From Escherichia phage TH12, in the sequence record MT446390.1: 64,000 nt of DNA; one strand, given 5' to 3'. Position numbers and translations under genes: made by a program. Shown here one piece after another: positions 34,993-63,185 of the stretch (the first letter of the stretch is position 1; each line of letters starts with the position of its first letter). The notes beneath the pieces were generated by a model, which was not told the origin of the DNA, did no database searches, and worked only from the letters and a program-made list of their open reading frames with translations.

Positions 34993-35628
34993 ATGAAAAC
35001 TACACCAATCACTATCGCTATTGACGCAATCGTAAAACAAGCTTCATCTCTTGCCACTATGGCTAAAGTAATTAGTCAAAACTCTGCCCGATATAATGCT
35101 ATTCTTGAAACTCTTCGTCGCCCTGGACTGAGTAATTATGAAAGCCGAGTAATTATTACAGGTGTTGGTAAGAACGCTAATATCGCAACTAAAGCTTCCG
35201 AGACTTTTGCTTCACTAGGTATTCCTAGCATGTATTTGAACACCGGGCATTATTCTCATGGCGACGCAGGGTTTATTGCACCTAATGATGTATTAGTTCA
35301 CATCAGTCGTTCTGGTAAGACTGAAGAAATGATAGGTGTTGCTAAACATCTTCGTATGATTCGTCCTCAGGTTAAACAGATTCTGTTACATTGTAACCCT
35401 GACATTCCGCAAGAATACGAAGCTCTTTTTGATTATACGTTCTGTACAGGCATCGCGGTAGAGGTTGATGAGAATTCTCTGGCTCCGACCATGTCCACTA
35501 CATTGTTGTTAGCGCTTATCGATACGTTTGCTATCAACCTTTCGTCTGAACGTGGATTTACCTCTAATGACTTCCTTAAGTTCCACCCTGGTGGTGCACT
35601 AGGTGCCATGTTACGAGGCGAACAATGA
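34993..35628 (+). CDS. SIS-domain sugar-phosphate isomerase (arabinose-5-phosphate isomerase-like)
   Basis: SIS motifs ITGVGKNANIATK, SRSGKTEE, HPGGALG; 211 aa. Confidence 0.8.
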   Translation: MKTTPITIAIDAIVKQASSLATMAKVISQNSARYNAILETLRRPGLSNYESRVIITGVGKNANIATKASETFASLGIPSMYLNTGHYSHGDAGFIAPNDVLVHISRSGKTEEMIGVAKHLRMIRPQVKQILLHCNPDIPQEYEALFDYTFCTGIAVEVDENSLAPTMSTTLLLALIDTFAINLSSERGFTSNDFLKFHPGGALGAMLRGEQ

Positions 35629-35768
35629 AAGCAATAACAATAGGACTTTTACTATTGATGCTTGTCATGACTATCTACTGGAGCTTAACGGCTCCAGTAA
35701 TGATTCCGACTCTTATAATCGGATGGATTATGATTGGACTACAAACAAAGTATGAATGCTTTAACTAG
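35625..35768 (+). CDS. Small membrane peptide (47 aa), uncertain
   Basis: ATGA overlap with SIS gene stop; hydrophobic; below track cutoff. Confidence 0.4.
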   Translation: MKAITIGLLLLMLVMTIYWSLTAPVMIPTLIIGWIMIGLQTKYECFN

Positions 35769-35809
35769 AATAGTGTACAATACACCTACTTACCAATGAG
35801 GACCACAAC

Positions 35810-37495
35810 ATGAAAAAAGCTGTTATTCTTGGTGCTGGACTGGCAACTCGTTTGTATCCAATAACGCACCATATTCCTAAGGTGCTTGTTAACTATAAAC
35901 AAGACACTATTCTGAGCAATTTGTATACAATTTATTCTGACCTTGGTGCAGATGAAATTATTGTAGTAGTTCATTCAAAATTTGTTGAAACTGTTCGAGC
36001 TTATTGTGAGCAAGAAGGGTTCAATGTGACTATTCGTACAGTTGATGAAGCGTATGGTTCTGCTTATGCTCTTGCTAAATTATACAAAGATTTAGATGGC
36101 CATAATGTAATTGTTAACTGGTGTGATATTATTCCTGATTTTGGTTCATGGTCTTGGAATGTTAACGCAATCTATGTTAAGGGTGACGAATGTCGATATA
36201 ATTTCGACGGTGAAAATATCACTAGCGTAGGTTCAACAGGTGGTAATGTTGTAGGAATTTATCAGTTCAAAGACTGGGAATTCTATATGGGTTCTACTGA
36301 TGAGGAAATTCATGAATACTGCAAAGGACGTGATTTCGTAGAATTCCTTTACGGCAGCGCATTCAATAAATCAGAGCTTATGAATCTAATTGATTTAGGT
36401 GATATGCCTAAACTTGAAAAAGCTCATGAAGTTCGTGAACTTAATCGTAGTTTTAATGCAGTTGAAATTGGTGAAGAAACTGTAACTAAATTCGCATTAA
36501 CCGAACAGGGCCGAGCTCTTCAGAAAGATGAGATTTCATGGTATCTTAAAGTGAAATCAGATTCAGTTCCTCAGTTAGTTTCTGTTAATGAAAATAACTT
36601 TGAAATGGAACGCATTAAAGGTAAGCCGGCATTTGAATATATTAAATCCAAATCGAGTCTTGCTCGTCCACAAATTGTTGATGCAATTTTAGATGCACTG
36701 AAATTCAGCACAGACACTTATTTTGTAAGTCCTGAAACTGTTCGTCGTGATTTCACTAAAGAATTCTATACGAAAGTTATTGATCGTTGTGAAAGCATTC
36801 AACCATTGATTGATTCATTTGGTAAAATCACACATGTGAACTACACTAAGATTGGACGTCTGAAGCCAATGCTGAAACAAGCTTTAGAACACCTTATTCG
36901 TTATCATAACCGTTCTCAGGGACAGTACTCTGTTATTCATGGTGACCCGAACTTCAGTAATACTATGATTACTGATAACGGCGAAGTCAAGTTTATCGAC
37001 CCTCGTGGATATTTTGGCGAAACCAAGATTTACGGGCCAAAATTGTACGATGAAGCTAAAGTGCTTTATGCTGTTTCAGGTTATGATGAATTCAATGCTA
37101 ATCCGACCTGGGGACAGTTTACTATTGATGAAACAACTTGTAATGTGACTATTAACATCAATCCATTAATTTACAAATATGGAAAGATGAGTTCGTTTAA
37201 CGAGTATCATCATTTGGCGGTGGCAATTATCTGGATTGCATTAGGTGGTTATTTCAAGAATAATCCACTTAAAGCGGTAGCCGCATATTATAAAGGTATG
37301 GAACTTCTGACTAAGCAATTACGCAACATGGGCCGTGTACTTCAAGACGGCTCTATTAGTTATGACGTAGCAGAACCTGTAACGGCTACTCTGATTACAA
37401 AAAATCCTGGTAAATGGGTACTAACTGATAAAGAAACTGGTGTTTCCTATCGTCCAATCGGTGGCGATATCACTCATCAATGGGAACGAATCTAA
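35810..37495 (+). CDS. Bifunctional sugar-1-phosphate nucleotidyltransferase / APH-fold sugar kinase
   Basis: N-term AVILGAGLATRLYPITHHIPKVLV (NDP-sugar pyrophosphorylase G-loop); C-term VIHGDPNFSNTMI...FIDPRG (APH/choline-kinase-type motifs); 561 aa. Confidence 0.75.
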   Translation: MKKAVILGAGLATRLYPITHHIPKVLVNYKQDTILSNLYTIYSDLGADEIIVVVHSKFVETVRAYCEQEGFNVTIRTVDEAYGSAYALAKLYKDLDGHNVIVNWCDIIPDFGSWSWNVNAIYVKGDECRYNFDGENITSVGSTGGNVVGIYQFKDWEFYMGSTDEEIHEYCKGRDFVEFLYGSAFNKSELMNLIDLGDMPKLEKAHEVRELNRSFNAVEIGEETVTKFALTEQGRALQKDEISWYLKVKSDSVPQLVSVNENNFEMERIKGKPAFEYIKSKSSLARPQIVDAILDALKFSTDTYFVSPETVRRDFTKEFYTKVIDRCESIQPLIDSFGKITHVNYTKIGRLKPMLKQALEHLIRYHNRSQGQYSVIHGDPNFSNTMITDNGEVKFIDPRGYFGETKIYGPKLYDEAKVLYAVSGYDEFNANPTWGQFTIDETTCNVTININPLIYKYGKMSSFNEYHHLAVAIIWIALGGYFKNNPLKAVAAYYKGMELLTKQLRNMGRVLQDGSISYDVAEPVTATLITKNPGKWVLTDKETGVSYRPIGGDITHQWERI

Positions 37496-37881
37496 TGCAC
37501 CGTGTAGAAAACATGCTTAATCTTTGTTTTGATGTCGATGATTGTATAACAGAGTGGAATAACAATCGTGATTACGTGAACTTCAAACCAGACGTCGAAA
37601 TGGTGTCTGCCATTAATGCCCTGTATGATGCAGGGCATACCATAACGCTTTACACTGCTCGTGGTATGAAGTCAGTAGGTCCTGGTCGTATAGCAATTGA
37701 CATTCTCCCAAGTCTGATTCAGAACTTGGCAAACATTGGCTTGAAGTACCATAATTTGCTAACACATAAACCAGTATATGATTGGATTATCGACGACAAA
37801 GCTATGCGTCCTGACGAATTCAAAGCTCTTATGAATAAAGGCGAATTCGAAACATTTAAATCGTATAAACCGAATCTATAA
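37495..37881 (+). CDS. HAD-superfamily phosphatase-like protein
   Basis: Motif I FDVDDCIT near N-terminus; TAATG overlap with upstream stop; 128 aa. Confidence 0.65.
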   Translation: MHRVENMLNLCFDVDDCITEWNNNRDYVNFKPDVEMVSAINALYDAGHTITLYTARGMKSVGPGRIAIDILPSLIQNLANIGLKYHNLLTHKPVYDWIIDDKAMRPDEFKALMNKGEFETFKSYKPNL

Positions 37882-37939
37882 TAATTTAAGTAAGACCTGC
37901 AAAAAAACCATCGCATCAATTAACGCGAGATGCAAAAAA

Positions 37940-39100
37940 ATGAATACTTTTAAAATCGGAACGAATTTTGATTTAGCTCTTCTTGATAAAATCGTAGAGC
38001 TCAATAAAACCTATCCTAATAGCTTGATAAACGAAGTATATGGCTCTACAAGAGAAATGGCTTTTGTAGCAGCCAGACCTGATTTTAGGCTTCCTGACGT
38101 TGACAAAAAGATGTTAGAAGACTACGTTAAACGTTGTAACGAATTAGGTATTTGCTTTAACTATACACTCAACACGATAAATCCTGGTTCAAAAAGAGAA
38201 CTAGTTGAGTGGAAGAAGAAAGCTATTCAGGATTATGTTCAGTATCTTTGGTCAATAGGCGTATGGCGTATTACTATCGCTAACCCTGTTGTTATGGAAA
38301 TTGTTCGTGAAGTCAATAAAGATATTGAGATTGAAGTTTCAACAATTCTACATGTCGATGCGGTAACTCAAATCAAATACTTACATGACCAATATAACAT
38401 CAAAAAGGTCTGTTGCGGAATTCATAAGAACCGTTCAGTTTCTTTCCTGAAGCGTGCAGCAGAGTTTTGCAATAAGAACAATATAATATTTGAAGTTCTT
38501 GTAAATGAGTTCTGTTCTAATGCTGGTAAAGGGTATACAACACATTGTAGTTATCGTGACTCTTGCTATATTTTCCATAGTACTGATGTTACAGCTGATG
38601 ATGCTAAATCCTTAAATGGATATCCAATGCAACACTGCATTAAAGCTCGTGATACAGACCCATTTAACTGGTTGAGAACTCGTTTTGTTCGTCCTCAAGA
38701 TTTGAAACTTTATAATGATATTGGTATCACTCAATTCAAAGTTTCAGGACGTACAGGTAGCACAGACTACATTTTGAAAGTTCTTGAAGCATACGCTTCT
38801 GAAAAGTTTGAAGGTAATTTGTTAGAACTGTGGAAGCCTTTAGAGACTATTTTCACTCTTGAAAATGAGACTGAGTTTTCACATACAGTAAATATTGAAA
38901 CCTCTTTGTTAGATGGCTTTTTAGAAAAAAGGTGGTTCAGACATCCAGATTTTGATTGTGCTAATGAAATCTGTGGGTCAACGTGTACATATTGTGAAAG
39001 GTATTATAAACGTCAATTATCTAAAAACGGGTTAGCAGAAAACTCCATATCTATTATTGATATAACTAACTCTGATGACGCTTTGAGGTACCCGGAATGA
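37940..39100 (+). CDS. Cys-rich enzyme, tentatively peptidase-U32-like (Fe-S?)
   Basis: 386 aa; Cys clusters VCCG, EFCSNAGKGYTTHCSYRDSCY, DCANEICGSTCTYC; family call is weak by-eye resemblance only. Confidence 0.6.
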   Translation: MNTFKIGTNFDLALLDKIVELNKTYPNSLINEVYGSTREMAFVAARPDFRLPDVDKKMLEDYVKRCNELGICFNYTLNTINPGSKRELVEWKKKAIQDYVQYLWSIGVWRITIANPVVMEIVREVNKDIEIEVSTILHVDAVTQIKYLHDQYNIKKVCCGIHKNRSVSFLKRAAEFCNKNNIIFEVLVNEFCSNAGKGYTTHCSYRDSCYIFHSTDVTADDAKSLNGYPMQHCIKARDTDPFNWLRTRFVRPQDLKLYNDIGITQFKVSGRTGSTDYILKVLEAYASEKFEGNLLELWKPLETIFTLENETEFSHTVNIETSLLDGFLEKRWFRHPDFDCANEICGSTCTYCERYYKRQLSKNGLAENSISIIDITNSDDALRYPE

Positions 39101-39336
39101 TTTCTAGAAAAAGTTTTAATTATAAACTTAACGAAGAGATTTTGACTATGAAACTGAACACTAACGAACAAATTCTTAAAAAGGCCCTTATGGGCCTGTT
39201 TGAAACCAAAGCGGCTAAAGTGATTAAAGAACCTGTTCAATTGGAATACTACACTGATGCATTCCTTCATAGTGTTCTTGGAAGTATAGATTCTGAAGCT
39301 TTACGTTATATCAACATTGTCAAGAAATTCAAATAA
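39097..39336 (+). CDS. Hypothetical protein (79 aa)
   Basis: ATGA overlap; GAGGT upstream. Confidence 0.5.
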   Translation: MISRKSFNYKLNEEILTMKLNTNEQILKKALMGLFETKAAKVIKEPVQLEYYTDAFLHSVLGSIDSEALRYINIVKKFK

Positions 39337-39378
39337 GCTTTATGAATTGAGTATATAATAAATTGTATTGAGGTAAAT

Positions 39379-40095
39379 ATGGGAAAACATAACACAATGA
39401 AATATATCAAAGCCGCAGATTTTCAAACCGCATTTAAAGCAGTCAATCGTGAAATTTTAGAAAACCCCGAATTCGTAACTGATTCTCGTATTGGACGTTG
39501 TAATGAAATTGGGTCTATGACAGTAGTTGTTGACACTCCATCATCATTCAAAATGACCGACCCACGTATTAACCGCATCTCTTATGAATATGCCGAAGAC
39601 TTCTGGAAGTTTATGATTTCTGGTGGTACCAACGCAGAAGAAGCGTTTAAGGCATATCCTAATGTCGCTAAATTTATTTCTAAACCAAAATCAGATGTTT
39701 TGCCGGCGAACTTCAACACTTTCTATGGTCCTCGCATTGCGGCCCAATTACCAACTCTTCTAAAAGAACTTAAAGAAAAACCTAACTCTCGAAGAGTTGT
39801 GTTCCAAATTCTAGAAAGTTCTGATCAGGCTTTGCTTGATTCGGACGAAACACTTGAATATCCATGTACTGACTCAGTAACTTATTATATTCGTGATGGT
39901 AAGCTTTATACCCACTGTCATATGCGTTCTCAGAACTGTGCTGTTGTTATGCAGTTGGATTTTTATCTCCAAGGAAAATTACTTCATTATATCGCTAACG
40001 AATGTGGTGTAGAAGTTGGTGATTATACTCATACCATGGTAAGTGCCCATGTGTTTGAACGTGATTTTGATTATGTTAAAGGATTCCTTGACTAA
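39379..40095 (+). CDS. 42: dCMP hydroxymethylase homolog (thymidylate-synthase superfamily), divergent
   Basis: KPNSRRVVFQIL vs T4 NPDSRRGIMIY; PCTDSVTYYIRDGK...HMRSQN vs T4 MCTNTVQYLIRDKK...NMRSND; SAHVFERDF vs SLHVYSRHF; 238 aa. Confidence 0.75.
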   Translation: MGKHNTMKYIKAADFQTAFKAVNREILENPEFVTDSRIGRCNEIGSMTVVVDTPSSFKMTDPRINRISYEYAEDFWKFMISGGTNAEEAFKAYPNVAKFISKPKSDVLPANFNTFYGPRIAAQLPTLLKELKEKPNSRRVVFQILESSDQALLDSDETLEYPCTDSVTYYIRDGKLYTHCHMRSQNCAVVMQLDFYLQGKLLHYIANECGVEVGDYTHTMVSAHVFERDFDYVKGFLD

Positions 40096-40994
40096 TGGCT
40101 ATTTTCCGCGTACCAATCTTGAGTATGCGGTCTTATGAAACTGGACAGTATGCTATCCTTAAGGATGGCAACTTCCAACTTCATTTGCACCGTGCTAATC
40201 CGGGTGATGTGATTACATATCCACGTAATGCATCTGATATTAAAGAATGCGAACGTCTTTTCCCAGAATTTAAGTTTGTTCCATTATGGTATAAAGATAA
40301 CGCGTATAACACTCGTAAATATTTCTGGACTGAAAATGAATTTGTGGTTGATTCATTAATTGATTATTATGATTGTGATTTTCTAATCACAGATATCACT
40401 GGTTATGGCGGCGCTTTTGATGTGGAATTCAATTTCAATATCACTGCAGACCCTAATAAACCACGTTTTTATATTGATGAATTCTTAAAAACCGACATGT
40501 TGTCTGTTAATCGTTCACTTCAAACTACTGTGTTGAATGAACGTCAAAAAGGAGTGCTGGTTAACGCAGGTGCAGATGGTAATAAGATTATCGTAACGCA
40601 GAAAGTTATACGTCCTTCCATCATGCAGCGTCTTGTAGGTGATTTGGCTCCTATTCATCTAGATGGTATTTTTCATCCATTTCGAATTAGTGACCCATGT
40701 TATCGTTTTGAACAAGTGGTTGAATGTGCAATTCAATTAGGTCAACCGCTTTATATAACCGATCCAAATAATAGCTTCGACAGAAATAAGTATCCTGAAG
40801 AAGCGCTGATTCGAATTTTTAAACCAACTAAAACTGAGTACTATCAAATTCTTAAAGGACGTCCGAAAATTCAATATTTCGAAAATCCTGAAGAAGTATT
40901 CCATCCAGGTCTTGGTGAGTTCATCTACTTTAATGCTTTAATTTCTTCGCCGTATAATATACCTAAATACGAAGATGTCGTAATCGAGGAATAA
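40095..40994 (+). CDS. Hypothetical protein (299 aa) at the T4 beta-gt position
   Basis: TAATG overlap with 42 homolog; no family recognised. Confidence 0.6.
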   Translation: MAIFRVPILSMRSYETGQYAILKDGNFQLHLHRANPGDVITYPRNASDIKECERLFPEFKFVPLWYKDNAYNTRKYFWTENEFVVDSLIDYYDCDFLITDITGYGGAFDVEFNFNITADPNKPRFYIDEFLKTDMLSVNRSLQTTVLNERQKGVLVNAGADGNKIIVTQKVIRPSIMQRLVGDLAPIHLDGIFHPFRISDPCYRFEQVVECAIQLGQPLYITDPNNSFDRNKYPEEALIRIFKPTKTEYYQILKGRPKIQYFENPEEVFHPGLGEFIYFNALISSPYNIPKYEDVVIEE

Positions 40995-40995
40995 A

Positions 40996-41544
40996 ATGGC
41001 TAAAATTATTTTAGTAGACGGCCCAGATAATGCTGGTAAAACAACTTTCATTAATGACATAATGGAAATTAGTGAAAGATATGTAAAGATTGATTTCCCT
41101 AAACGAACAGTTGATGGACGTTTCGATGTTAAGTCTCGAAATGAAGTTGGTTGTTTCGAAACGATGTTGAATTATTTAGACCCTACTAAGATTTATCTGT
41201 TAGACCGTGGATATATTAGTAACTGGGTTTATGGACGTATTCGACAAGATGCGGACTCGGTTCTTGACGTTTATGAACAGGACTATGTTCGTCTTTGCCA
41301 AAACCATGATGTGTTCACAATTATTTTAACACGTAACGAAATGACTGAAAGTTTTGAAGACGACCTTATTACTTTGTCTTCATTCGGTTTTAATACAGTC
41401 GTTTCACATTTTGAAGAGTTTGCAATTCATAACAAAATCCAAACATATCAATTACTTAATCATGATGGTGCTAACAAAGTTATAGGATTTAATGCAAGCG
41501 AACGTAATTGTTTGATTACAGAAATCATCAAATGGGCTCGTTAA
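40996..41544 (+). CDS. P-loop kinase, thymidylate/dNMP-kinase-like
   Basis: Walker A ILVDGPDNAGKTT; LLDRGYISNWVYGR resembles Tmk DR(Y/H) region; 182 aa. Confidence 0.6.
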   Translation: MAKIILVDGPDNAGKTTFINDIMEISERYVKIDFPKRTVDGRFDVKSRNEVGCFETMLNYLDPTKIYLLDRGYISNWVYGRIRQDADSVLDVYEQDYVRLCQNHDVFTIILTRNEMTESFEDDLITLSSFGFNTVVSHFEEFAIHNKIQTYQLLNHDGANKVIGFNASERNCLITEIIKWAR

Positions 41545-59423: not shown

Positions 59424-59849
59424 ATGGCTTTTAAAGGTTTTGAAGTTGGTAAGAAATATCGTATTATCAAAGGACAGGAAGATAATTTCTTGAGAATTCT
59501 TAATACGACTGGTAAACGTCTTAATACTAATCTGCATACTACTTTATTGTCCAAAGATTTTATTGTGGAAGAGATGATTGGTTACGGTGTTTCAATGATT
59601 GCTGTAGAAGCCGTAGGCGATTATGGCCGAACTATTCATAGTATGCAAGGTGATATTCTGCTTTATGGTGCAGAATTTAAATTCTTTGAAGAAGTTCAGG
59701 AACCAGATACAGCTGTCGATTTCAAAAAAGGCTCTATAGAATTTGTTGATGGTTCGGTGATCGTATCAGGCGATGTGGTCATTACAGTTAAAAGTGAACA
59801 AGGGCGTTTGGCTGTAATTGATGCACTTCAGAAAATTAAATTTAAATAA
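59424..59849 (+). CDS. Hypothetical protein (141 aa)
   Basis: ATG right after upstream stop. Confidence 0.6.
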   Translation: MAFKGFEVGKKYRIIKGQEDNFLRILNTTGKRLNTNLHTTLLSKDFIVEEMIGYGVSMIAVEAVGDYGRTIHSMQGDILLYGAEFKFFEEVQEPDTAVDFKKGSIEFVDGSVIVSGDVVITVKSEQGRLAVIDALQKIKFK

Positions 59850-59866
59850 GGGCTTCGGCCCTTTTT
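59848..59866 (+). terminator. Intrinsic terminator
   Basis: aagggc-ttcg-gccctt followed by ttttt. Confidence 0.65.
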
Positions 59867-59912: not shown

Positions 59913-61733
59913 ATGATTAAAAATGAAATTAAGGTATTGTCAGATGTAGAACATATTAAGAAACGTAGTGGTATGTATATTGGTTCTTCTGCTAAAGAAG
60001 CCCACGAGCGTTTTTTGTTTGGTAAATATCAACAAGTTGAATATGTTCCAGGTCTGGTTAAATTAATCGATGAGATTATTGACAACTCGGTTGATGAAGC
60101 TATTCGTACATCATTTAAGTTTGCAAATAAAATTGATGTGCAAATTAAAAATAATCAAGTTTCGGTGGAAGATAATGGACGTGGTATTCCTCAAGGTTTA
60201 GTTACCGACCAAACAGGTGAACAAATTCCTGGGCCTGTAGCAGCCTGGACTATTCCAAAGGCCGGTGGTAACTTTGGCGATGACTCTGAACGCAAGACTG
60301 GTGGTATGAACGGCGTCGGGAGTAGTTTAACTAATATCTTCTCTACGTTGTTTACAGGCATTACGTCAGATGGCGAAAATGAAATCACTGTTAACTGTTC
60401 AAACGGAATGGAAAACAAATCATGGTCTTCTAAGAAATCTAAAGGTAAAGGCACTAAAGTAATCTTCACTCCTGATTTCACTTCATTTGAAGAGCATAAT
60501 TTATCTCAAATTTATTTAGATATTACTTTAGACCGACTTCAAACATTGGCAGTCGTTTATCCTGATATCAAGTTCACATTTAATGGTAAAAAGGTTGATG
60601 GTAATTTTAAACGATTTGCTAAACAATTTGGTGAAGATAACATCATTCAAGAAAATGATAAAGTCTCTATAGCATTCACAACATCACCAGATGGCTTCCG
60701 TCATTTAACTTATGTGAATAACATCCATACTAAAAACGGCGGTCATCATGTTGAATGTGTAATGGATGATATCTGTGAACATCTTTTGCCTGGTATTAAA
60801 AAGAAATATAAGGGTATTGAAGTCACTAAAGCTCGTGTTAAAGAATGTCTCACAATGTTGATGTTTATTAGAGACATGAGCAACATGCGTTTTGATTCTC
60901 AGACTAAAGAACGTTTAACGTCAACGTATGGTGATATTCGTAATCATATCCAATTAGATGCTAAGAAAATTGCTCAGGCACTTCTTAAAAATGAAGCCTT
61001 GATTATGCCTATTGTTGAAGCAGCATTAGCTCGTAAATTGGCGGCAGAAAAGGCTGCAGAAACTAAAGCGGCTAAAAAGGCAACTAAAGCTAAGGTTCAT
61101 AAGCATATTAAAGCTAACCAATGTGGTAAAGATGCAGATACGACATTGTTCTTAACAGAAGGTGATTCGGCAATTGGTTATCTCATTGATGTTCGTGACC
61201 GTGAACTACATGGTGGATTCCCATTACGTGGTAAGGTGATGAATAGCTGGGGTATGTCATATGCTGATATGATGAAGAACAAAGAGCTCTTTGATATCTG
61301 TGCTATCACAGGTCTTATTCTTGGTGAAAAGGCAGAGAATACGAACTATCGTAATATTGCAATTATGACTGATGCCGATCATGACGGCCTTGGAAGTATT
61401 TATCCGGCTTTGCTTGCTTTCTTTAGTAATTGGCCTGAATTGTTTGAACAAGGACGTATTCGCTTTGTTAAAACGCCTGTAATTATTGCACAAATTGGCA
61501 AAACTCAAAAATGGTTTTATACTGTAGCTGAGTATGAAGAAGTTAAAGATACACTGCCTAAGCATAGTATTCGATACATCAAGGGATTGGGCTCACTTCA
61601 GCGGGATGAATATAAAGAAATGATTCAAAACCCTGTGTACGACGTAGTTAAACTTCCTGAAAATTGGAAAGAACTATTTGAAATGCTCATGGGTAACGAC
61701 CCTGAACTCCGTAAAGATTGGATGCTTGGTTAA
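59913..61733 (+). CDS. 39: Topoisomerase II ATPase subunit, uninterrupted gp39/gp60 fusion form
   Basis: 606 aa; GHKL ATPase IDNSVDE...EDNGRGIP...GGMNGVGSS and TOPRIM-like TEGDSA...DADHDG in one ORF. Confidence 0.9.
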   Translation: MIKNEIKVLSDVEHIKKRSGMYIGSSAKEAHERFLFGKYQQVEYVPGLVKLIDEIIDNSVDEAIRTSFKFANKIDVQIKNNQVSVEDNGRGIPQGLVTDQTGEQIPGPVAAWTIPKAGGNFGDDSERKTGGMNGVGSSLTNIFSTLFTGITSDGENEITVNCSNGMENKSWSSKKSKGKGTKVIFTPDFTSFEEHNLSQIYLDITLDRLQTLAVVYPDIKFTFNGKKVDGNFKRFAKQFGEDNIIQENDKVSIAFTTSPDGFRHLTYVNNIHTKNGGHHVECVMDDICEHLLPGIKKKYKGIEVTKARVKECLTMLMFIRDMSNMRFDSQTKERLTSTYGDIRNHIQLDAKKIAQALLKNEALIMPIVEAALARKLAAEKAAETKAAKKATKAKVHKHIKANQCGKDADTTLFLTEGDSAIGYLIDVRDRELHGGFPLRGKVMNSWGMSYADMMKNKELFDICAITGLILGEKAENTNYRNIAIMTDADHDGLGSIYPALLAFFSNWPELFEQGRIRFVKTPVIIAQIGKTQKWFYTVAEYEEVKDTLPKHSIRYIKGLGSLQRDEYKEMIQNPVYDVVKLPENWKELFEMLMGNDPELRKDWMLG

Positions 61734-61747
61734 TTGATAGATGTCCT

Positions 61748-61775
61748 AAGCTCCTTCGGGAGCTTCATTTTAATT
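61748..61775 (+). terminator. Hairpin terminator candidate
   Basis: aagctcc-ttcg-ggagctt then cattttaatttt. Confidence 0.55.
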
Positions 61776-61791
61776 TTAATAAGGCTTAATT

Positions 61792-62892
61792 ATGAAAGTT
61801 ATGTTTATCCCATCTCGCGCAGTCCCATTTAACCCAGAACGTGTACAAGGTGGTCTTGAAGCAGTACATTTAAATGTGTTGAAATATCTTGTGTCCATCG
61901 GTGCTGATATTGATTATATCGGCTTTGATAATGACACATTTGGTGATTGGAAGGTTAATCATCATCCTGTTGGTCATCTGACTAAATTCAGTCTAGGTAT
62001 GAGTTATACTATGGCTCGTAAGATTGTTGAACTAGCCGGCATCCATGAATACGATTTCGTTGTTACTATGGAACCGACTAAACTAACCGTTCAGGCAATT
62101 AAAGACGCAGGTCTCTCTAAAGTTCATAAGAATTTTATGGCAACACCATTTGAACCGGTATCTCGTGGCATTGTTCAAATTTGGGACCAGACTATTCAAA
62201 TTCATAAGAACGGTGGTAAGAGTTATGCTCCTACTAAAGCCTTCCGTGAATTTGAACGTAAATATTGTTATATGACTTCAGGTCTGACTGACAAAATTGA
62301 TTATGATTATTGGCGAGCAAATCCGTTGTTTGAAGCCGAAGATTATCCGGTTATTTGTTTGAATGAGAAACCTGAAGTTCTTCCGGCGACTGATCTGATT
62401 ATTAGTGCACAACGTTATGACACTAAAATGCGTCGTACTGATGTTGCTCTTGAAGCGATTAAAGCACTAGGCGAAAATGGTGCAGGATACTGTCCTAGTA
62501 AATGGGCACCACCGGCTAAGTATCCTGTTATTATTGATGCTCCACACAGTGAAATCATGGAACGTCTTAAAACAGCTAAAGCACTTATTAATACGTGTCC
62601 TGACACAGGTACGGTAGAGAATAGTTCTATTGAAGCCATCTCTAAAGGTGTCCCTGTAATCCAGTTAGTTTTTAAGGATTATCCTCATGCGACATTTGAA
62701 TATGACCCAGATACTGTGCGTGTAGAAATTGATTCCTCTACTCCTAAGAAAGAAGTAGTTGCGCTTTACACAAAAGCTGTATTAGAATTCACTGACACAT
62801 ACGAAGCTCGAGTTAAACGCGCTGAAGCAGTGTGGAAGAAGTATAATCGAGATGCAGTTGTTGCGATGTGGGATAAAATCTTCACAGCGTAA
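61792..62892 (+). CDS. Candidate GT-B-fold glycosyltransferase (possible DNA glycosyltransferase)
   Basis: 366 aa; C-terminal TGTVENSSIEAISKGVPVIQ resembles GT-B nucleotide-sugar-binding E-x7-E region; fold not verified. Confidence 0.6.
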   Translation: MKVMFIPSRAVPFNPERVQGGLEAVHLNVLKYLVSIGADIDYIGFDNDTFGDWKVNHHPVGHLTKFSLGMSYTMARKIVELAGIHEYDFVVTMEPTKLTVQAIKDAGLSKVHKNFMATPFEPVSRGIVQIWDQTIQIHKNGGKSYAPTKAFREFERKYCYMTSGLTDKIDYDYWRANPLFEAEDYPVICLNEKPEVLPATDLIISAQRYDTKMRRTDVALEAIKALGENGAGYCPSKWAPPAKYPVIIDAPHSEIMERLKTAKALINTCPDTGTVENSSIEAISKGVPVIQLVFKDYPHATFEYDPDTVRVEIDSSTPKKEVVALYTKAVLEFTDTYEARVKRAEAVWKKYNRDAVVAMWDKIFTA

Positions 62893-62984
62893 ATCCTGAA
62901 TAGCCTGAGGCACTATTACACATAAGATGATAGATTATATGGTCTTTAGTAATAGTGCCCTAGGAATCTACTGAAGAGAATATT

Positions 62985-63185
62985 ATGAGAACATATAACG
63001 TGGACTTGGAACTTTTTGATAAAGCAGTGCTCCGGGAATTCCGGCTTATCCAAAGATTTTTTGATATCGAGTCAGCAGAGTCCTTTAAAGAACGCTTTAA
63101 AGAAATTCGATATAAAATACAAACCGATACAGCTACTAAAGAAGAACTTCTTGAAGTAGCAGAAATTTTTAAACGTAACTTGTGA
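62985..63185 (+). CDS. Small protein (66 aa), rIIA.1-like by position
   Basis: ATG after GAAGAG; immediately upstream of rIIA. Confidence 0.55.
   Translation: MRTYNVDLELFDKAVLREFRLIQRFFDIESAESFKERFKEIRYKIQTDTATKEELLEVAEIFKRNL

Follow-up and report, generated by a model that had tools for sequence, protein, structure and literature searches.

The closest described relative of the gene considered here is ORF003c of phage RB69 (RB69ORF003c; gp3, NP_861693.1), whose HHpred matches to GT-B enzymes, together with a Phyre2 model, led Thomas et al. (2018; PMC6024577) to propose it as the likely arabinosyltransferase of that phage. RB69-type DNA carries arabinosylated 5-hydroxycytosine (PMC13326640, PMC13390438), the former assignment as 5-hydroxymethylcytosine (hmC) having been called erroneous (PMC13390438), and the modification of RB69 itself was determined by NMR as beta-D-Araf-(1-3)-alpha-D-Araf-5-hydroxy-2'-deoxycytidine (PMC13326640). 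The base is provided by RB69 gp48, a thymidylate-synthase-like protein that makes 5-hydroxy-dCMP and not 5-hydroxymethyl-dCMP, and the role given to RB69 gp52:53 is making the donor UDP-Araf (PMC13326640, citing He et al., 2026). Published sugar counts differ between phages, being mono-arabinosylated in the DNA of Shewanella phage Thanatos, di-arabinosylated in RB69, NP, Bas46 and Bas47, and tri-arabinosylated in DLP3. A 299-aa type of protein has been proposed as the first (alpha), base-linked arabinosyltransferase acting on 5-hydroxycytosine, and RB69p003 (RB69 gp3) is listed as “beta-arabinosyltransferase 2” (PMC13326640); the role of second arabinofuranosyltransferase has thus already been proposed in papers of 2026. 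Together with UDP-Araf, DLP3 gp76 and gp77 turn RB69 DNA into the tri-arabinosyl form in vitro, the two being active only jointly, and none of the DLP3 glycosyltransferases worked on 5hoC-DNA by itself (a result which that paper gives without the data; PMC13326640). In a secondary source, deletion of “the arabinosyltransferase Aat”, a gene given there by this name only, is described as having sensitised Bas46 to a plasmid-encoded defence system.

The DNA analysed here, hereafter the window, is a stretch of 64,000 nucleotides from Escherichia phage TH12 (MT446390.1) and represents a Mosigvirus (RB69-like) genome, in which the 4.1-kb stretch holding our gene is 97–98% identical to about 150 Mosigvirus phages. 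The open reading frame (ORF) encodes 366 aa from an ATG start at 61792..62892 on the plus strand, exactly where a preliminary description had placed it, and it is preceded by a ribosome-binding site AAGG at 61781–61784 (+), with the ATG 7 nt further downstream. Comparison with three Mosigvirus alleles (RB69, OLB35 and p000v) gave 17–23 synonymous against 1–4 non-synonymous differences and a pN/pS of 0.01–0.06, so that the ORF is under strong purifying selection; since a protein 98% identical over all 366 residues has also been crystallised, we regard it as a real gene. The crystallised protein was released in July 2025 under the titles “phage HY126 glycosyltransferase” (PDB 9iqz, apo) and “... 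with UDP” (9ir0), and RB69 ORF003c is 99.5% identical to our ORF by tblastn. Two to six substitutions separate the ORF from the RB69 and HY126 proteins, none of them in a family-invariant column. Judged by sequence, RB69 ORF003c and the HY126 glycosyltransferase of the crystal structures have their Mosigvirus orthologue in the 366-aa ORF, and this “ORF003c-type” gene is an ordinary feature which was already known; likewise, the idea of a DNA sugar transferase, to which the preliminary description had come from the letters of the DNA, holds no novelty, as RB69 ORF003c was proposed as the arabinosyltransferase in 2018 (PMC6024577). In phage records the type is nearly always annotated as “hypothetical protein”, and the sole annotated relative from the representative and word-indexed searches carries a JGI label, “glycosyltransferase involved in cell wall biosynthesis”. 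PHROG 8302 (“unknown function”) matches residues 1–366 with an E-value of 9e-223, the ORF finds no match in Pfam at E up to 10 nor in NCBIfam, and the ORF003c-family alignment, run as a profile against PDB sequences, matched only 9iqz/9ir0.

The gene lies between topoisomerase and rIIA, as had been described. Its 5' neighbour is the fused gp39+60 topoisomerase II large subunit (59913–61733, +, 606 aa), its 3' neighbours are rIIA.1 at 62985–63185 and rIIA from 63198, and the order of the fused topoisomerase gene, the ORF003c-type gene and rIIA.1/rIIA is that of Mosigvirus. The fusion of gp39 and gp60 is as in RB69, without T4's split and gene-60 bypass element. Between the topoisomerase stop and the glycosyltransferase start, a UUCG-tetraloop hairpin (61748..61765, +) is followed by a T-rich tract and then by the AAGG site, and a second G+C-rich hairpin with a UUCG tetraloop at 59848–59863 (+) means that the topoisomerase gene is flanked on both sides; these are putative terminator-like or mRNA-stabilising elements. 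Upstream of the glycosyltransferase gene, a sigma-70 scan aimed at a T4-type promoter gave nothing above chance, and we therefore make no claim on the timing of its expression. The spacer between the glycosyltransferase gene and rIIA.1 (62893–62984, +) holds a long hairpin with a perfect 11-bp stem, GGCACUAUUAC/GUAAUAGUGCC (-28.6 kcal/mol, z -4.4). This spacer is conserved at 99% in four Mosigviruses while synonymous sites of the adjacent gene differ by 7–9%, and the RB69 hairpin carries one uncompensated stem change. Some relatives, including p000v, phiC120, phiE142, a20, F27 and others, differ by a homing endonuclease gene of ~800 bp inserted exactly at the topoisomerase/glycosyltransferase junction (61734–61791 in the window; 2034–2831 in compared locus L005), a gene absent from both this window and RB69. 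The junction is a hot spot for insertions.

The AlphaFold2 (AF2) model of the 366-aa ORF is weak (pLDDT 61, with residues 115–188 below 50, from a six-sequence alignment) and was used solely for retrieving the deposited structure and the fold class, hence our statements on the fold rest on the deposited structure. The protein has the two Rossmann-like domains with an inter-domain cleft that define the GT-B fold, and its next-best fold neighbours after 9iqz/9ir0 are all GT4-type GT-B enzymes, which upholds the earlier assignment to GT-B glycosyltransferases. It is predicted to be a soluble two-domain, GT4-like GT-B enzyme with a UDP-sugar site in the C-terminal domain; the PDB entry title of 9ir0 places UDP on the 98% identical HY126 orthologue. 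The C-terminal segment that had been likened to a nucleotide-sugar-binding region, TGTVENSSIEAISKGVPVIQ (residues 272–291; 62605..62664, +), can now be described as a modified E-x7-E-type nucleotide-sugar motif, whose residues have putative roles read from invariant columns and alignment. It includes seven of the 36 family-invariant positions (T274, E276, S279, E281, A282, G286 and Q291), and it falls on the E-x7-E motif, “PDE-SFGITALEALSRGVPCI”, of the metagenomic protein P0137, a Glycos_transf_1 protein exceeding the Pfam threshold, which is 35% identical to our ORF over residues 248–352 (pairwise E 4e-12). In this alignment the second Glu is E281, the position of the first Glu is taken by T272, an additional invariant E276 stands between them, and the A-x-x-x-G-x-P-V that follows E281 is retained. 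Two distant family members match GT4-conflict below threshold (E 0.003 and 0.066), and the link of the ORF to CAZy GT4 / Glycos_transf_1 is an indirect one that goes through P0137. At the start of the C-terminal domain lies QRYDTKMR (residues 207–214; 62410..62433, +), in which Q207, R208, D210 and R214 are invariant, and the spacing of R208 and R214 resembles what we take to be its counterpart, the diphosphate-binding R/K pair of GT4 enzymes (R...K in PimA/WaaG). In the loop after the first beta-strand, VQGGLEA (residues 18–24; 61843..61863, +), with G20-G21-L22 nearly invariant, would correspond to the glycine loop that GT4-type GT-B enzymes typically have near the N-terminus.

The alpha-gt and beta-gt genes of T4 had been described as missing from their usual sites, and indeed tblastn found no homologue of either in the whole window (E > 2), the gp55–gp47 interval that corresponds to the T4 a-gt site holding small ORFs only. 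The comparison with the T4 enzymes that had been suggested as a check was run, and it revealed no detectable sequence relation: hhalign of the ORF003c-family profile against T4 a-gt and T4 b-gt gave a probability below 1% each, and neither enzyme appears among the top 50–60 fold matches of the 366-aa protein. The same profile gave no signal against the family of the 299-aa island protein described below, so that we no longer claim any specific kinship of the ORF003c type to either the T4 enzymes or the island protein. With deeper profiles, HHpred had matched ORF003c to 1XV5 at E 1.9e-24 (Thomas et al., 2018; PMC6024577), a match that speaks for kinship in fold and no more.

The arabinose island of the window spans 34993–41544 on the upstream side and ends ~20.2 kb before the 366-aa ORF, in agreement with the distance of about 20 kb given earlier. 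It starts with a SIS-domain arabinose-5-phosphate isomerase (RB69 gp55; 34993..35628, +; Pfam SIS; PMC13326640), followed by a bifunctional sugar kinase / NDP-sugar pyrophosphorylase (RB69 gp52:53, AfhE-like; 35810..37495, +) recognised by Pfam NTP_transferase and weak kinase-family matches, and by a HAD-type sugar phosphatase (RB69 gp51, AfhF-like; 37480..37881, +; PMC13326640), which matches the capsule biosynthesis phosphatase family NCBIfam TIGR01689 at E 4e-13, below the family cut-off. A thymidylate-synthase-like gene at 39379..40095 (+), detected by Pfam Thymidylat_synt, encodes a protein that is nearly the same as that of PDB 9iqc/9iqu/9ir2 but shares just 25% identity with T4 gp42, and a small kinase-like protein is encoded by the island as well. 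The synthase is of the 5-hydroxy-dCMP type, and RB69-type DNA has 5-hydroxycytosine (PMC13326640, PMC13390438); on this published chemistry, the acceptor named in the preliminary description, hmC-DNA, would have to be replaced.

One further member of the island is a Peptidase_U32-family protein of 386 aa (37940–39100, +; Pfam E 7e-11, with a weak NCBIfam match to UbiU), which has been entered as “sugar or heterocycle reductase” only (PMC13326640). It is missing from the island of Acinetobacter phage DLP2. Members of the U32 family such as RlhA, TrhP and UbiU/UbiV are needed for oxygen-independent hydroxylations, including that of 5-hydroxycytidine in 23S rRNA, and Acinetobacter, the host of DLP2, is a strict aerobe. 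Because U32 proteins serve oxygen-independent hydroxylations and the thymidylate-synthase-like 5-hydroxy-dCMP synthase uses O2, the U32 protein could provide an anaerobic route to 5-hydroxycytosine, in parallel to the aerobic and anaerobic ribonucleotide reductases of the phage.

Directly adjoining the synthase gene, in the place of T4 beta-gt, lies the gene for the 299-aa island protein (40095..40994, +; equal to RB69 gp46:47). Searches of Pfam, NCBIfam and PDB sequences with this protein gave no match, and its AF2 model shows a compact GT-B-like fold at a pLDDT of 94.8, which Foldseek matched to MshA, UDP-GlcNAc 2-epimerases, HepE, WbnH and other GT-B folds at E-values of about 1e-6. With a GT-B-like protein at the T4 beta-gt site, the window holds two candidate DNA sugar transferases and not one. 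This island glycosyltransferase, with more than 135 protein clusters, was found by tblastn in 348 phage records, covering every arabinosylating lineage sampled, from phages of Escherichia, Klebsiella, Enterobacter, Edwardsiella, Yersinia, Pectobacterium, Serratia, Proteus, Providencia, Shewanella and Acinetobacter. It is labelled “hypothetical” almost everywhere; some records wrongly call it “RNA polymerase binding protein” or fuse it with dCMP hydroxymethylase. The preliminary description had named the 366-aa ORF as the best candidate in the window for the DNA sugar transferase; it is neither the sole nor the best one, given the confident model, the wider distribution and the published candidacy for the first sugar of the 299-aa protein.

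The ORF003c type is distributed more narrowly. It was found by tblastn in 211 records, almost all of them from Mosigvirus or Acinetobacter phages: about 155 are Mosigvirus, with 95–100% identity at one place per record, and about 55 are Acinetobacter phages, with about 42% identity at two places per record. An exhaustive search of 1.84 billion proteins returned ~16 representatives, and word-indexed searches agree that the family is very small. Its presence together with the island is seen in the window, and by host-genus counts the host genera of the family form a subset of those of the island glycosyltransferase. About 137 phage records (348 against 211) have the island and the 299-aa protein without an ORF003c-type gene; JS98, PEi20 and Thanatos-type phages are of this kind, with the island glycosyltransferase only. 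The paralogues of Acinetobacter phage DLP2 (ADLP2_047/048) are 57% identical to each other and 41–43% to the 366-aa ORF, and the pair is located within the island, directly after the genes for the kinase and the 299-aa glycosyltransferase; DLP3 gp77/gp76 are syntenic with it. A divergent member of 394 aa and 34–36% identity, P0130, was also found in a T4-like metagenome contig (L006 3040–4224), where its gene adjoins DNA ligase and dsbA-like genes, a third genomic location of the ORF003c type. When the published sugar counts are set beside the genes, the number of sugars equals one plus the number of ORF003c-type copies in three lineages: none in Thanatos, which has the island glycosyltransferase only, one in RB69-like phages, and two in DLP3, the last by synteny with DLP2.

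From the distribution (348 vs 211 records), the sugar count of one plus the copies, the activity of the DLP3 pair and the published proposal, we assign the ORF003c type to the second step. It is nearly beyond doubt that the 366-aa ORF encodes a GT-B enzyme which uses a UDP-sugar in the arabinosylation pathway, and the earlier claim that it belongs to a DNA-sugar pathway fed by the island stands, with Acinetobacter homologues inside the island and DLP3 gp76 and gp77 using UDP-Araf in vitro (PMC13326640). That it is in particular the second, chain-extending DNA arabinofuranosyltransferase we consider probable. The order in which the two transferases would act is read from the phyletic correlation across three lineages. 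An unlikely alternative, in our estimate, is that the 366-aa ORF is itself the primary transferase putting the first arabinose onto the modified cytosine while the 299-aa protein does something else. This was the view of the preliminary description; the 2018 proposal, drawn from HHpred matches of ORF003c to T4 alpha-gt and GT4 enzymes (PMC6024577), points that way, and by sequence the 366-aa ORF alone in the window has glycosyltransferase character, the island protein being without matches. However, the ~137 records with the island glycosyltransferase and without the ORF003c type include Thanatos, whose DNA is still pentosylated, and the 299-aa protein is a confident GT-B prediction at the T4 beta-gt position beside the synthase.

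A single processive or dual-specificity arabinosyltransferase, by which the 366-aa ORF would attach both sugars and be partly redundant with the island glycosyltransferase, might account for the mixture of mono- and di-arabinosyl forms in the virion DNA of RB69 and NP, and the DLP3 paralogues likewise behave cooperatively in vitro and not as clean single steps. Yet the two linkages differ, alpha to the base and beta between the sugars, one site with one donor does not normally form both, and the number of sugars tracks the number of gene copies, so we give this reading little credence. Much the least probable is a target other than DNA, be it a component of the host envelope or a phage or host protein, in a process unrelated to the island: the gene does lie 20 kb away from it, in the variable early region beside rIIA, and the enzymes closest to it in structure work on lipids, polysaccharides and small molecules, but by host-genus counts the family is found only in island-carrying phages, and DNA is what the syntenic homologues of DLP3 modify in vitro. 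Homologues embedded in the arabinosylation island of Acinetobacter phages led us to reject it.

For the second-step assignment that we prefer, the pathway would run as follows. The island 20 kb upstream would supply 5-hydroxy-dCMP and UDP-arabinofuranose; once 5-hydroxycytosine is in DNA, the 299-aa GT-B protein would link the first alpha-arabinofuranose to the C5 oxygen, and the ORF003c-type enzyme would then transfer a second arabinofuranose from UDP-Araf to O3 of the first sugar, forming the beta-(1-3) bond. The product would be beta-D-Araf-(1-3)-alpha-D-Araf-5-hydroxycytosine, as in RB69-type DNA, and the longer glycan may shield the DNA further against restriction and CRISPR nucleases. 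The two transferases presumably share one donor but leave opposite anomeric configurations, so that one of them should be a retaining and the other an inverting enzyme. Every structural neighbour of the ORF003c type is a retaining GT-B enzyme, and furanosyl nucleotide donors in nature mostly have the 1,2-cis configuration, beta in the case of D-Araf. By our own reasoning, the ORF003c type may thus be retaining and give the beta-(1-3) bond from 1,2-cis UDP-beta-D-Araf, a soft suggestion as the Pfam GT4 models miss the ORF and the first Glu of its E-x7-E is replaced; inversion by the island glycosyltransferase would then give the alpha bond to the base, which fits the assignment of steps. Taking these points together, we tentatively picture the ORF003c type as a portable “glycan-extension cassette”, a joint reading that we hold as possible but somewhat short of an even chance. 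In it, the number of copies would set the chain length; the cassette would have changed place among no fewer than three sites of T4-like genomes, namely the interior of the island, the gap from topoisomerase to rIIA, and the neighbourhood of ligase and dsbA; and a retaining cassette enzyme and an inverting island glycosyltransferase, both starting from the 1,2-cis donor UDP-beta-D-Araf, would make the inter-sugar bond beta and the base-proximal bond alpha.

Arabinosylated 5-hydroxycytosine protects RB69-like phages against restriction enzymes, type I CRISPR-Cas and the Brig1 glycosylase, and which host defences still work depends on the number of sugars. RB69-like phages are common therapy candidates, and an assignment of genes to sugars would make it possible to engineer the DNA of a phage, or to predict it with nothing but the genome sequence at hand. 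The value of the present analysis lies in correct annotation and not in discovery, with the chemistry updated from hmC and one transferase to 5-hydroxycytosine and two sequential transferases.

Among known systems, the retaining GT4-type enzymes PimA, WaaG, BshA, MshA and GlgM are the best non-self fold matches, sharing with the ORF003c type the two Rossmann-like domains and, as predicted for the latter, the C-terminal nucleotide-sugar site with ...E-A-x-x-x-G-x-P-V. They are about 10–14% identical to our ORF, which differs from them in its altered E-x7-E (T in place of the first Glu, with the extra E276) and in its proposed acceptor, a sugar on DNA. [quoted passage not shown] In function it is presumably nearer to the beta-alpha-glucosyltransferase of T2/T6, which adds a second glucose. 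RB69 ORF003c and the HY126 glycosyltransferase are practically the same protein as ours, encoded at the same site from the fused topoisomerase gene to rIIA.1. The Acinetobacter pair (of DLP2, and of DLP3 by synteny), proposed as beta-arabinosyltransferases 2 and 3, belongs to the same family over the full length and keeps all the invariant motifs; it differs in being two tandem copies within the island that go with a tri-arabinose product, while Mosigvirus has one copy 20 kb away.
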